Both the position numbers and the translations under genes were made by a program. Below the pieces are notes generated by a model. That model was not told where the DNA came from. It saw only the letters and a program-made list of their open reading frames with translations, and made no database searches. 64,000 nucleotides of DNA from Escherichia coli (GTDB taxonomy: Bacteria; Pseudomonadota; Gammaproteobacteria; Enterobacterales; Enterobacteriaceae). The stretch lies in the NCBI RefSeq assembly GCF_003334305.1, contig NZ_QOWS01000001.1; one strand, written 5' to 3'. Shown here one piece after another: positions 24,737 through 35,624 of this stretch (within the stretch, counting starts at the first letter, position 1; each line of letters begins with the position of its first letter).

Positions 24737-24775
24737 CAGTGCTCTGGTAGCTGTAAAGCCAGGGGCGGTAGCTTG
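24737..24775 (+). promoter_or_regulatory. JUMPstart element with ops site (RfaH-dependent antitermination signal)
   Basis: Sequence CAGTGCTCTGGTAGCTGTAAAGCCAGGGGCGGTAGCTTG read directly; contains GGCGGTAGC ops core; sits just upstream of the AT-rich cluster. Confidence 0.85.
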
Positions 24776-24785
24776 GTAAAAAATC

Positions 24786-25631
24786 ATGATAAATGTAAGA
24801 AAAATAGCAAAATTAATTATTGGCGATAATTTGTATTGGAAGTTGAAGTTTTTTTATGCCACTAAAAAATGGCCTAATATTTATGATCCAACTTTTTTTA
24901 ATGAAAAAGTTCGCTGGCGAATGCTGCACGACCAAAATTATCTTTATGTTAAATGCGCTGATAAGTATGAGGTCAGGAACTATATTGAGAAAAAAATTGG
25001 CAGTGAATATTTAGTTCCGCTTCGTTATATGTTTACTAATAATGATGATATTACTGATAAATGTATTCTGAGTAATAGTGTAGCAAAGTCTAACCATGGT
25101 GCAGGTATGATAGAGTTCATTCCTGAGACGTATTCATTAAGCGAGTTGAAGAATACTTTTGGAAAATGGCTAAATCTTGACTATACCTCCGAGTCCAATG
25201 AAAAACATTATAGTAGGATTCCGAGAAAAATTCTTATTGAAGAGTCTTTGTGTAAGGAGGGAAAACCTCCTGTCGATTATAAATTTCATACATTTAAACA
25301 AGCAGATGGTTCATTTCGTTTTGTTCTTCAGTTGGTAAATGGTCGGTTTCATAATGAATCAAGAGGTTATTATCTGGAGGATCTTAATAAATGCATATGG
25401 TCTCATGGTGAAGGTTTTCATTCTATTCCACAAGAGCATATAAAACCTTTAAAAAAGGCTATGGAATTGTCATCAATTCTATGTGAAGATTTTAATTACG
25501 TACGAGTTGATTGGTATATCTATGATAATAAGCTTTATTTTGGTGAATTAACCTTTACACCTGGTGCTGGAAGTTCATATGAATTTGGTAATGAGCTTGA
25601 AAAATTAATGGCCAAATATTGGCAGTTGTAA
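24786..25631 (+). CDS. TupA-like ATP-grasp family protein (putative polysaccharide amidoligase)
   Basis: 281 aa; family-typical motifs FNEKVRW, DKYEVRNYI..IGSEYLVPL, DYKFH, VRVDWY....KLYFGELTFTPGAGS; AT-rich. Confidence 0.7.
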   Translation: MINVRKIAKLIIGDNLYWKLKFFYATKKWPNIYDPTFFNEKVRWRMLHDQNYLYVKCADKYEVRNYIEKKIGSEYLVPLRYMFTNNDDITDKCILSNSVAKSNHGAGMIEFIPETYSLSELKNTFGKWLNLDYTSESNEKHYSRIPRKILIEESLCKEGKPPVDYKFHTFKQADGSFRFVLQLVNGRFHNESRGYYLEDLNKCIWSHGEGFHSIPQEHIKPLKKAMELSSILCEDFNYVRVDWYIYDNKLYFGELTFTPGAGSSYEFGNELEKLMAKYWQL

Positions 25632-25632
25632 A

Positions 25633-26934
25633 ATGAAAATAATATATAACACACTTTGGATGATATTTGAAAAATTAGTATTATCCCTATCTTTATTAAT
25701 CATTAATGCCTATGTTGCGAGATATTTAGGGCCTCAGCAATATGGGGTTATAGCCTATTCTATTACACTGCTCAGTATTTCTGTGGTTATTAGTAATTTT
25801 GGCACTAACACATTAATTTTCCAAAAAATAAGCAAAAATCACAGTGTTGCAAAAATCATTATACCGCCGATACAGATATTGAAAACAATATTATACATAA
25901 TATGTATACTTATTATGTTTTTCTGTTTATATATTTTTAGTTATGATTTTGATCCTTATCTGACATTTGGTTTAGCTGTAGCATTTTACTTTCAAGCTAT
26001 TGATAGCTATACATGGTATAATGATGCAAAATTGAAATCAAAGTACAATAGTCTTATTAATACAATAGCCTTAATAGGTGCTATTATAAGTCGTTACTAT
26101 TTGGTAAAACTATCGATGGATTTAAAATGGTTTGCTATTCCTTATGTATGCAATTACGGGATATCTTTTTTACTGAAAAGATATTTTTATATTAAAGAAG
26201 AAAAAACTAAAAGCATCAAATCATTTATATTTGAAAAAAAAGATCATACACTAAAAGTTATATCTTTCTTTATAATTTCAGGTGCGCCATTATTTTTAAG
26301 TGAAATATCAATTCTTATTTATACAAGACTTACAAACTTATATCTAGGACAAATTAAAGATATTGATGCGGTCGGCATATTCAATGCATCTTATGTTTTA
26401 GCTACTGCCTGGACAGTCGTTCCTTTGGCATTTGTTACGAGTGTCTTTACTATAATCTATAAAGAAAAGGATATTTCTAACAGGGCTTTAATTGGAACAT
26501 TCTTGACTTTGTTGATGTTGTTTTTTGGTTTTTTACTTGTCATATTGTGTTATTTTTTCAAACAACAGATTATCAGTATTGTATATGGCTCCGGTTTCGA
26601 GTTATCTTCTTCTATATTACCTGTACTTATTCTTGGCTCAGTTTTCTCTCTTTTAGGTGTTATTTCCTATCGGATGATAATATCAATGCATGGGTACAAA
26701 TATATAGCAAAAAAGATGGTTATTATGGGGGTGATAAGTATTCCATTAAATTATTATCTTATTAAATCGTTAGGTATTATTGGTGCAGCTTATGCTACAG
26801 TTAGTATTGAACTTATATCAGCCACATTGGCGAATTATTTTTTTAAAGGTGGGGTGATTGCAAAAATGCATTTAAAAATGATAACGTCTCCCTACAGTGT
26901 ATCTATGCAAGCTATAACTAAAATACTGAAATAA
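25633..26934 (+). CDS. wzx: Wzx-type repeat-unit flippase
   Basis: 433 aa, about 12 predicted TM segments, polysaccharide-transporter-like; AT-rich. Confidence 0.8.
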   Translation: MKIIYNTLWMIFEKLVLSLSLLIINAYVARYLGPQQYGVIAYSITLLSISVVISNFGTNTLIFQKISKNHSVAKIIIPPIQILKTILYIICILIMFFCLYIFSYDFDPYLTFGLAVAFYFQAIDSYTWYNDAKLKSKYNSLINTIALIGAIISRYYLVKLSMDLKWFAIPYVCNYGISFLLKRYFYIKEEKTKSIKSFIFEKKDHTLKVISFFIISGAPLFLSEISILIYTRLTNLYLGQIKDIDAVGIFNASYVLATAWTVVPLAFVTSVFTIIYKEKDISNRALIGTFLTLLMLFFGFLLVILCYFFKQQIISIVYGSGFELSSSILPVLILGSVFSLLGVISYRMIISMHGYKYIAKKMVIMGVISIPLNYYLIKSLGIIGAAYATVSIELISATLANYFFKGGVIAKMHLKMITSPYSVSMQAITKILK

Positions 26935-26935
26935 A

Positions 26936-27841
26936 ATGAAAGATCAAGCATTAGTCTCTATTATTATTCCAACATATGGGCGGTGTGACACTTTAAATCT
27001 TGCTGTCCAAAGTGTACTAAAACAGGATTATAAAAACATAGAAGTATTGGTTATTGATGATAATGATAATCCAATAATGTCTAAGAAAGTTCGTGCCAAT
27101 TTATCGGAATATCAATCCGATCCCAGATTAAAGTATTTTAGTGATGGGGTTAATAGAGGTGGAGCAGGGGCAAGAAATAAAGGAATTGAATTGTCAATAG
27201 GTTATTATATTACTTTTCTTGATGACGATGATTTGTTTTTAGAAAATAAAATATCAAAGCAAATTGACTTTTTAGAAAAAGAACAACTTGATGTATGCCT
27301 TTGTGATATGTATTTTAAACAAGGAGACCGTTTTATAAAAAAATCAAATTGCTATGCAAATGGAACAACATTAAAAGAATTTATACTCAAGGGAAATTGT
27401 TACACGCCAATGATCATGTGTAAACGACATGTTCTAATTGATATTGGTGGATTCGTTTTAACTCCTCGGTTTCAAGATCACTTATTAATGATTAGGATTC
27501 TTTCTAATACTTCGAAAGTGGGGCATTTATCTGAGCAATTATTTGTTCATAATAACCATAATGGTGAAAGGATTACATATAGTAATAAATCTGCTGAAGC
27601 ATATATATTACGCGAAAAGATGGAGCGAGAATATATTTATTTATTAAATTCAAATGAACGTAAAACATTCGAATTCAAGAAGGCACTTATAAGGATGAAA
27701 ATATATAGATTAAAAAATGAACATATGAAGTTACTTAAAATAACATTATATGCCGTGAAAAACCTCACTAACTTTTCAGATGTTTACGCATTAGGAAAAA
27801 CTTTAATAAGAGTGATGTTTTTTGGGAGTAAAAATGTGTGA
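26936..27841 (+). CDS. Glycosyltransferase family 2
   Basis: 301 aa; N-terminal VSIIIPTYGR....DDND GT2 motif. Confidence 0.8.
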   Translation: MKDQALVSIIIPTYGRCDTLNLAVQSVLKQDYKNIEVLVIDDNDNPIMSKKVRANLSEYQSDPRLKYFSDGVNRGGAGARNKGIELSIGYYITFLDDDDLFLENKISKQIDFLEKEQLDVCLCDMYFKQGDRFIKKSNCYANGTTLKEFILKGNCYTPMIMCKRHVLIDIGGFVLTPRFQDHLLMIRILSNTSKVGHLSEQLFVHNNHNGERITYSNKSAEAYILREKMEREYIYLLNSNERKTFEFKKALIRMKIYRLKNEHMKLLKITLYAVKNLTNFSDVYALGKTLIRVMFFGSKNV

Positions 27842-34740: not shown

Positions 34741-34863
34741 ACCTACCCCGCAACTCACTGATGCCGCGTGCGCAGAATCACTATCACTGTTGTTAAATCC
34801 AGAATTTGAACCTGCAACAGCACCAGCAGGCGATACATCAAATCAGGCACCTCATTGGTTAGT
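34741..34863 (-). pseudogene. hisI 3'-end remnant (about 120 bp, about 75-80% identical to the 3' end of intact hisI at 47792-47926)
   Basis: Gap-free alignment done by eye between the two + strand segments; same orientation as intact hisI; no start codon and no preserved stop. Confidence 0.7.
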
Positions 34864-35143
34864 ATGTACCTTCGCAAAACGGGATTACTCACAGCGAACA
34901 TGGCGTAATTTTGTACAAATCTGTTTTTTTTATCAGCAGATTATTTAGCAACCAGGCAAAAAATGTCATGCCTTTCTTCATTTTTACTTATATATCAATT
35001 GATTATAATTAATTGGTTTGGTAAATGTTTAAGATGTGTATTATTTGAGTAATCCATTAATTAGTCGGCTTTTATATTTTTTTTCCCAGCATGCAACGCT
35101 ATAATCTGCGAAGATTTTTTTGTGGAATGTGCAGTGTAGAGGC

Positions 35144-35428
35144 ATGAGTCGTTTATCCCACCAGTCGCAACATAACGCCGTCGTCGTGTGCAAAGAGCTG
35201 TCAAGCCCGAACGCGCGCTGCTTCTCTGGCGGCGAATACGATGTCTCTTCTTATCTTTCCTCGTATCGTAAATGCTCCTTTCTGATGGTTGCTGGCATCG
35301 GTAAATCACTTGATTCGTTTTTTTTGATGGCGGTGAGAGCATGTGTTTTGCCCCGCGTAAATGAGAAGGTCCTGATGGTTACTCTGGCGGCAAATGTGGA
35401 AATTGTGGGGCGTTTCGTGGCCTGGTGA
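35144..35428 (+). CDS. Hypothetical small protein (orphan ORF in the wzz-manC junction)
   Basis: 94-aa ORF from ATG 35144 (GAGG just upstream), in frame with a longer ORF from 35120; followed by a strong hairpin terminator; no recognisable domain. Confidence 0.3.
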   Translation: MSRLSHQSQHNAVVVCKELSSPNARCFSGGEYDVSSYLSSYRKCSFLMVAGIGKSLDSFFLMAVRACVLPRVNEKVLMVTLAANVEIVGRFVAW

Positions 35429-35444
35429 GGAACAGATACATATT

Positions 35445-35490
35445 AAAAGCAGAGATATGCCCTGAGACATATCTCTGCTTTTAGGTTTTC
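35445..35490 (+). terminator. Strong stem-loop / putative intrinsic terminator
   Basis: 11-bp near-perfect inverted repeat GCAGAGATATG...CATATCTCTGC followed by TTTTAGGTTTT. Confidence 0.65.
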
Positions 35491-35582
35491 AGGATGCCCG
35501 TTCCGTAAGGATGGTTTTTGAGACCGCTGAGTGAAGGGGCTGCCGACAGTCTGAAGCGAAAGAGGGTGGCGTTTAGCCTGGA

Positions 35583-35624
35583 GCACTACGCATTTTGGTT
35601 GCGATAGCCAATGGCGGTAGCGTA
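35583..35624 (+). promoter_or_regulatory. Degenerate JUMPstart-like element with ops-like site
   Basis: GGCGGTAGCGT at 35613-35623 with partial JUMPstart similarity upstream, about 80 bp before manC. Confidence 0.6.

Follow-up and report, generated by a model that had tools for sequence, protein, structure and literature searches.

Two JUMPstart leaders of different types ahead of the O46/O134-family and O8 polysaccharide clusters in an Escherichia coli his region

A 64-kb stretch of Escherichia coli DNA (contig NZ_QOWS01000001.1; hereafter, the window) contains two surface-polysaccharide gene clusters, an O46/O134-family cluster between galF and gnd (cluster 1) and an O8 polymannose cluster starting with manC (cluster 2), each preceded by a copy of the JUMPstart element with its ops site (elements 1 and 2). 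JUMPstart is the 39-bp element of Hobbs and Reeves 1994. Comparison of the two leaders suggested, with a probability that we put at about 0.8, that these are two distinct polysaccharide operons, that each has a JUMPstart/ops leader of its own on the non-template strand, and that both leaders recruit RfaH. Element 1 would be the native E. coli galF-type JUMPstart standing before an AT-rich wzx/wzy cluster, and element 2 would have come with the O8 cluster inserted between wzzB and hisI. Judged by its conservation, element 2 is a Klebsiella/Raoultella-type JUMPstart that arrived with the mannan genes and not a relic, and nothing in the sequence pointed to weaker RfaH recruitment at manC.

A conserved JUMPstart variant upstream of manC

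Both elements were intergenic and lay on the coding strand, a short way upstream of the gene that begins a surface-polysaccharide operon (Table 1). An earlier inspection made from the sequence alone (hereafter, the sequence-only reading) had placed a motif at each of these positions, and both motifs were present there on the plus strand. For element 1, the Rfam JUMPstart family RF01707 was called at exactly 24737-24775 (56.7 bits, E = 2.3e-10, model positions 1-38), above the gathering score of 35 bits that is the threshold for family membership. Its parts were a 5' box (CAGTGCT), a hairpin with arms at 24744-24748 and 24758-24762 and a loop at 24749-24757, and the ops at the 3' end. These data bore out the description of element 1 as a near-consensus JUMPstart with ops, the single departure in ops being T at position 10.

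Upstream of manC, GGCGGTAGCGT was found at 35613-35623 with A as the next base, and the resulting ops ended 77 nucleotides (nt) before the manC ATG (35702). One-mismatch matches to the ops consensus GGCGGTAGCGTG in the window were limited to the two elements, as were matches to GGCGGTAGNNT. The latter count (2 versus 0.36 expected) was reached in 7 of 100 shuffles and is not significant by itself; it is the comparison of leaders that shows element 2 to be real. When the wzzB-manC spacer was searched by BLAST in 5,426 complete E. coli genomes, two classes of matches appeared. Full-length matches occurred in approximately 320 genomes at 94-100% identity (O8 type) and in approximately 230 at 80-90% (O9 type). 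Short matches of 36-46 nt were centered on the motif and lay in quite different genomic places, including sites upstream of rfbA/rfbB (wzm/wzt) followed by a gene for a DUF4422 protein (galactan-type), on the chromosome and on a plasmid, as well as upstream of rfbBADC and of plasmid-borne manC. When leaders from these unrelated clusters were aligned, a 35-nt block, CGCATTTTGGTTGCGAnAGCCAATGGCGGTAGCGT, was invariant and the flanks were not alignable. This block precedes manC (O8 and O9 types), galactan-type wzm, and rfbBADC, on E. coli chromosomes and plasmids.

The same block was recovered from other genera. An exact-pattern scan of species-representative genomes found it before wzm-wzt or rfbBADC in four genomes of Raoultella and two of Enterobacter; these six species representatives were all that the scan found, and none was K. 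pneumoniae. Klebsiella-type loci were reached through assemblies encoding an identical, very common galactan-type Wzm protein (n = 8), all eight of which carried the block 250 nt upstream of wzm. Because 35 nt are invariant ahead of unrelated clusters with non-aligning flanks, we consider element 2 to be real. Compared with the leader of galactan-type wzm-wzt-wbbM clusters (Klebsiella O1/O2-like), element 2 has the identical block, including the hairpin and GGCGGTAGCGT, but differs in having A instead of G at ops position 12, in its distance to the first gene (77 nt to manC versus approximately 250 nt to wzm) and in its unrelated flanking leader sequence. Plasmid places matching the manC leader numbered 19-20 in all, and plasmid pECO-5e72 (NZ_CP026400.1, 60 kb; locus 3001-4643) carried manC and rfbK with a variant JUMPstart leader beside a transposase fragment.

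The only structural feature that Rfam models in the 5' half of JUMPstart is a 5-bp hairpin just upstream of ops. In the Rfam alignment, this hairpin formed five of five standard pairs in both elements: CUGGU/GCCAG in element 1, and UUGGU/GCCAA in element 2 (arms at 35595-35599 [TTGGT] and 35607-35611 [GCCAA], loop at 35600-35606). The closing pair was changed on both sides, from C-G in element 1 to U-A in element 2, and a K1 strain has this U-A pair as well, in a kpsM JUMPstart with an Rfam score of 58.5 bits. We scanned metagenomes with AGCCAnnGGCGGTAGnnT, keeping only matches that had the TGG[TC] arm and disregarding the closing pair. Of all the matches listed, approximately two-thirds had no hairpin and were probably chance matches; among those kept, the closing pair formed in 36 of 38 distinct JUMPstart-like sequences versus 27 expected from base frequencies (C-G, 16; U-A, 11; U.G, 7; C-A, 0). 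Since the closing pair covaries in these sequences, it is the hairpin that is conserved in the 5' half, and element 2 retains it.

The remainder of the 5' half followed another pattern. The 5' box CAGYGC, which reads CAGTGC in element 1, was absent from element 2, which has ...GAGCACTACGCATT; in the Raoultella and Enterobacter copies, CAGCGTTACGCG corresponds to a box displaced by approximately 4 nt. The hairpin loop was 7 nt long in element 2 versus 9 nt in the canonical form. The JUMPstart of kps region 3 (kpsM; group 2 capsule) in the K1 strain shares the U-A closing pair, A12 and the same GGCGGTAGCGTACCTG with element 2, whereas it has the canonical 5' box and the 9-nt loop. Seven further copies of the variant that were tested scored 23.9-25.6 bits in Rfam, all under the gathering score, and the whole variant subfamily falls below the RF01707 threshold because of its 5' box and loop. 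Given its invariance across clusters and genera, we regard the 5' half of element 2 as a lineage-specific version that has not decayed.

At least three unrelated types of O-antigen cluster, in several genera, have these 35 nt unchanged, which is much more than the RfaH contacts (G5, T6 and the C3:G8 pair) would account for. The 5' half may therefore have a second reader, be it another factor or a structure formed by RNA or by non-template DNA, a proposal that we regard as speculative and rather unlikely; one candidate structure is a predicted outer helix in which an upstream CUACGC pairs with ops itself. If a second reader does exist, the two natural versions of JUMPstart, side by side here, would allow the function of the 5' half to be dissected by swapping.

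The ops sites and published RfaH binding data

Each ops matched the consensus at 11 of 12 positions, with T10 as the departure in element 1 and A12 in element 2, so that the claim of "only a degenerate ops" upstream of manC was not upheld. The core GGCGGTAG of the RfaH recruitment site GGCGGTAGnnTG was complete in both elements (C3, G4, G5, T6, A7 and G8), and T11 was present in both as well; these seven positions are needed for RfaH recruitment, the non-template hairpin or the pause (PMC5995543). The pause dinucleotide at positions 11-12 was TG in element 1 and TA in element 2, and validated RfaH targets have been stated to share TG there (PMC5995543).

Chromatin immunoprecipitation (ChIP) data from strain CFT073 include two sites with TA (PMC9765446, Data set S2). 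The ops of c1882, one of eight RfaH-bound leaders, is GGCGGTAGCGTA, the same 12-mer as ops 2, and likewise lies in an untranslated leader on the non-template strand, but it belongs to another operon and its RfaH signal appeared only in an hns stpA double mutant. The kpsM ops, GGCGGTAGCATA, which also has A12, gave the strongest RfaH peak in the wild type (70.9-fold enrichment). Because kpsM and c1882 are RfaH-bound with TA, G12 is no strict requirement in vivo. We had considered A12 as a functional defect of element 2 and dropped this idea in view of the two CFT073 sites and of the presence of A12 in the 58.5-bit kpsM JUMPstart. Among the metagenomic matches listed, A, T or C at position 12 also occurred in JUMPstarts preceding wzi-wza-wzb capsule loci. 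A12 was found in all eight classical O8-type leaders sampled from RefSeq (the window included) and in seven more from other assemblies, and a search for a G12 version of the O8-type context gave no match at 99% identity or above among the 5,426 genomes. Position 12 was G in the O9-type, galactan-type and rhamnose-type copies.

The variant has a functional precedent in Klebsiella. Deletion of rfaH in K. pneumoniae NTUH-K2044 lowered the transcripts of wzt by 68%, glf by 90% and wbbY by 71% (PMC11448354). These are galactan-type genes, and the sampled leaders of galactan-type clusters carry the 35-nt block; we infer the match between the sampled loci and the NTUH-K2044 leader from gene content.

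The galF-proximal leader of element 1 was approximately 95% identical to the MG1655 galF-rfbB leader as far as ops position 9, with the same hairpin, and the homology to K-12 stopped inside ops, which is GGCGGTAGCGTG in K-12 (G at position 10) and GGCGGTAGCTTG, with T there, in the window and other O46/O134-cluster genomes. The exact 60-mer ending at ops 1 was present at full length only in the top 10 O46/O134-cluster genomes among the matches listed, the next 20 being 98.3% identical; T10 is therefore, among these matches, a rare allele tied to the O46/O134-family cluster. Position 10 evidently tolerates change, because it is A at hlyC and kpsM of CFT073 (PMC9765446). The ops of the CFT073 wzx operon is RfaH-bound, with a predicted transcription start 67 nt upstream (PMC9765446), and homology to the K-12 and CFT073 leaders suggests that element 1 is transcribed. 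The prediction of the sequence-only reading that element 1 confers RfaH-dependent expression on an AT-rich cluster remained sound, since a genuine JUMPstart before DNA of 29.7% GC would be the classic setting (PMC9765446). The 22 nt from the start of ops 1 to the ATG were fewer than at any of the eight CFT073 RfaH loci (40-634 nt; table in PMC9765446). The ATG of the first gene of cluster 1 (24786) lies 10 nt past the end of ops 1 (interval 24775-24788 of the window), and no Shine-Dalgarno sequence was seen by eye before it.

The plus strand of the window held four GGCGGTAG cores versus 1.24 expected. Two of these, GGCGGTAGGGAA and GGCGGTAGGCGG, are exact cores inside two genes of the colanic acid cluster, wzc (2452-2459, +) and wcaI (11939-11946, +), and both are without T11. 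They are probably inert, because none of 34 intragenic ops-like sites in CFT073 was RfaH-bound (PMC9765446).

Transcription of the manC leader and alternative explanations

In the mechanism that we propose, RNA polymerase in either leader would expose GGCGGTAG in the non-template strand, which would form a small C3:G8 hairpin and present G5 and T6 to RfaH. RfaH would then stay bound, and pausing, Rho termination and blockage by H-NS would be suppressed through the operon. What the analysis shows is the sequences of the two leaders, how they are related to known families, how far they are conserved and where they lie; that element 2 is transcribed, that RfaH binds at either site and how large any effect would be are inferred.

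The best candidate for a -10 element of the manC leader was a perfect TATAAT at 35100-35105, which would place ops 2 approximately 500 nt into the transcript. Between it and a hairpin at 35444-35483, RefSeq annotates a 94-aa "hypothetical protein" (35144-35428, +), as in many O8 and O9 genomes. We rejected this open reading frame as a real gene that would stand between a promoter and ops 2: when copies of the O8 and O9 types were compared, substitutions fell evenly on the codon positions (20/22/19, 19/21/13 and 17/19/19), E. coli HS has a broken frame, and a search of NCBIfam with the 94-aa product returned no match. The stretch is probably non-coding leader. Since it has no coding signature, a manC leader of approximately 590 nt with ops approximately 500 nt from its start is plausible; a long leader has a precedent in the kps ops of CFT073, which lies 817 nt from the predicted transcription start (PMC9765446). 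In Klebsiella-type contexts, the upstream neighbor is a divergently transcribed epimerase gene, and the leader must therefore carry its own promoter there. Just upstream of the variant JUMPstart, a 47-nt block was nearly identical between O8-type and O9-type leaders (Table 1) and its neighboring stretches differed by 10-37%; no sigma-70 match was found in it by eye, and O9-type and some O8-type leaders have an insertion of approximately 8 nt just after it. No terminator-like hairpin was seen by eye in the 77 nt between ops 2 and the manC ATG.

Several points weigh against RfaH recruitment at both leaders. In Rfam, element 2 aligned at 35588-35624 with 20.7 bits (E = 0.047 in a 501-nt search), below the gathering score. 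In the interval from the hairpin (35444-35483) to ops 2, a promoter scan and a second, laxer scan both gave no sigma-70 promoter, and the hairpin itself, 130 nt upstream of ops 2 and conserved between O8-type and O9-type leaders, is terminator-like. Regarding position 12, G12 occupies the pocket of the core recognition element (CRE) in the ops-paused complex (PMC11001881), in vitro the U11 pause is lost upon the G12C change (PMC5995543), and A12 could lower the efficiency of recruitment; the restriction of the c1882 signal to the hns stpA mutant belongs here as well. For element 1, the 12-mer of ops 1 is not among the validated RfaH sites of CFT073, where its sole occurrence is intragenic (trkA), on the wrong strand and with no RfaH signal (PMC9765446). 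Finally, a literature search found no paper testing the RfaH dependence of E. coli O8 or O9 expression. As for the hairpin, its candidate roles are a terminator or insulator against read-through from wzzB, an attenuator, or something else.

The alternative that fares best is compatible with RfaH recruitment at both leaders and holds that the need for RfaH differs through base composition: cluster 1 would be blocked by H-NS and Rho without RfaH, and the O8 cluster would be transcribed fairly well anyway. We consider this a real possibility at somewhat less than even odds. It is suggested by the difference in GC content (29.7% versus 50.6%), by the observation that all eight CFT073 RfaH loci are bound by H-NS and show enrichment of AT-rich H-NS binding features, and by the finding that removal of H-NS and StpA permits elongation without RfaH (PMC9765446); the O-antigen genes of NTUH-K2044, however, still lose 68-90% of their transcript without RfaH (PMC11448354). 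If the two operons do differ in RfaH dependence, base composition and H-NS binding would be a likelier cause than the motif.

A second alternative is that element 2 is a decayed JUMPstart whose weak upstream half, or whose A12, leads to poor or no RfaH recruitment, leaving only cluster 1 RfaH-dependent. The sequence-only reading had leaned this way: it had noted that element 2 keeps ops and that its upstream half is poor, both of which are true by the E. coli consensus, and had proposed on the latter ground that the two clusters may differ in RfaH dependence. The 20.7-bit score, the missing CAGYGC box, the loss of the CRE-pocket G (PMC11001881) and the effect of G12C on the pause (PMC5995543) would all fit decay. 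However, invariance of the 5' half across clusters and genera is the opposite of decay, the hairpin is intact, the identical 12-mer and the kpsM A12 site are RfaH-bound in vivo, the latter most strongly in the genome (PMC9765446), galactan-type genes whose sampled leaders have the variant are RfaH-dependent in Klebsiella (PMC11448354), and A12, T12 and C12 JUMPstarts stand before capsule loci among the metagenomic matches listed. We therefore consider decay improbable, and the proposal of weaker RfaH dependence at manC on account of the upstream half was not sustained.

The least likely alternative, which we give very little credence, is that element 2 lies outside its own transcript as a passenger and that RfaH-modified polymerases from element 1 feed the O8 genes through gnd-ugd-wzzB: the two clusters share a strand, the searches next to ops 2 gave no sigma-70 promoter, and in CFT073 the RfaH signal starting at the wzx ops extends through cpsB, cpsG, gndA, ugd and wzzB (PMC9765446), but the leader requires its own promoter beside the divergent epimerase gene in Klebsiella-type contexts, the perfect TATAAT at 35100 is conserved, a strong conserved hairpin with a T run stands between wzzB and ops 2, and what stands ahead of O8 clusters varies, with several different galF-gnd clusters and IS1 found there. 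Polymerases from element 1 may read through toward the O8 leader to some extent.

Gene clusters of the window and implications

The gene order of the window was determined from the listing of open reading frames and by comparison with annotated E. coli genomes (Table 1). Cluster 1 comprises genes for an ATP-grasp amidoligase, Wzx, a GT2 protein, Wzy, a GlcNAc-transferase and a second GT2 protein. Cluster 2 was assigned to O8 polymannose because of the lengths of WbdD (425 aa) and WbdA (1213 aa) and its site between gnd and hisI (assignment after PMC7685785). The genome thus contains two complete O-polysaccharide clusters, one of the O46/O134 family (wzx/wzy) and one of O8 (ABC transporter).

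Table 1. Coordinates of the two JUMPstart elements, the gene clusters and other features of the window
Feature	Position	Strand	Remarks
Colanic acid cluster	to 22189		Window start side
Rfam algC RNA motif RF02929	13754-13803	+	77.3 bits; immediately upstream of cpsG (colanic acid cluster)
GlcNAc-PP-Und 4-epimerase gene, then galF	galF 23585-24478		
Element 1, canonical JUMPstart CAGTGCTCTGGTAGCTGTAAAGCCAGGGGCGGTAGCTTG	24737-24775	+	Rfam RF01707
ops 1 GGCGGTAGCTTG	24764-24775	+	T at position 10; rare allele, O46/O134-family cluster
Cluster 1, O46/O134-family wzx/wzy O-unit cluster	24786-30498	+	6 genes; 29.7% GC
gnd, ugd, wzzB	to 34561		Between cluster 1 and the manC spacer
Non-coding stretch	between wzzB and manC		1.1 kb
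hisI 3'-end remnant	about 34709-34862	-	Left junction of the insert; blastn against wzzB-hisIE regions of genomes lacking O8
TATAAT, perfect, candidate -10 of the manC leader	35100-35105	+	Inside a strongly conserved block
Hairpin, conserved, 16 bp	35444-35483	+	Flanking A and T runs, like a bidirectional terminator; -23.6 kcal/mol, z = -5.7
Conserved block, 47 nt	35541-35587	+	Just upstream of the variant JUMPstart; 2/47 differences between O8-type and O9-type
Element 2, Klebsiella-type JUMPstart variant, 35-nt invariant block CGCATTTTGGTTGCGAnAGCCAATGGCGGTAGCGT	35589-35623	+	From comparison of leaders
ops 2 GGCGGTAGCGTA	35613-35624	+	A at position 12, as in every classical E. coli O8-type leader sampled
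Cluster 2, O8 polymannose (ABC transporter), manC-manB-wzm-wzt-wbdD-wbdA-wbdB-wbdC	35702-47782	+	50.6% GC
his operon	downstream of wbdC	opposite to clusters	
His operon leader (Rfam)	54898-55021	-	131.6 bits; expected in this chromosomal region
Small RNA STnc240 (Rfam)	57760-57834	+	68.2 bits; expected in this chromosomal region

This layout resembles the his region described for E. coli O8/O9, with a polysaccharide cluster at galF-gnd and a mannan cluster between gnd and hisI, as far as PMC7685785 reports it from Amor and Whitfield (1997) and Sugiyama (1998). The window likewise has a wzx/wzy cluster at galF-gnd and an O8 cluster of Klebsiella origin between wzzB and hisI; it differs in that the galF-gnd cluster is of the O46/O134 family. 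In the literature, Klebsiella O5 is taken to be the source from which the O8 cluster was laterally transferred (PMC7685785). For the hisI remnant at the left junction, RefSeq annotates a pseudogene; an intact hisIE is present at 47821, and the Klebsiella-like DNA of the inserted segment starts at about 34902. The two clusters need not occur together, and other genomes have only one of them or have O8 with another galF-gnd cluster. NCTC11121 and FDAARGOS_1372 have the O46/O134 cluster but no O8, the O8 cluster of LD91-1 sits behind another galF-gnd cluster, and STEC005 and H15 have the same pair as the window.

In a Klebsiella-like context, one locus (L041) combined an O9-like manC leader carrying G12 with wzm, wzt, wbdD and wbdA of the O8 type downstream of it, and carried extra Klebsiella-derived DNA upstream (a gene for a small membrane protein and an epimerase pseudogene). 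Its lineage looks like a separate or recombinant import. We rejected it as an independent Klebsiella O5 sample for the ancestry of A12, as it was 100% identical to E. coli Ec1115 (L007) over their 2,264-nt overlap.

All these results fit known biology, and the small additions are a JUMPstart subfamily below the Rfam threshold and the A12 ops of the classical E. coli O8 leader. O8/O9 mannan clusters and Klebsiella-type galactan and rhamnose O-antigen clusters share this conserved subfamily, which the Rfam gathering score misses. Some natural ops sites with A12 are ChIP-validated, and approximately 300 of the 5,426 complete E. coli genomes have an A12 ops before the O8 cluster; the rule of TG at positions 11-12 is thus not absolute. 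The finding serves chiefly to correct a way of reading such scores: when an element scores low against the E. coli JUMPstart consensus or the Rfam threshold, loss of RfaH control should not be concluded from it, and in engineering or typing of O8/O9 double-cluster strains, both polysaccharide operons are to be expected to respond to RfaH.

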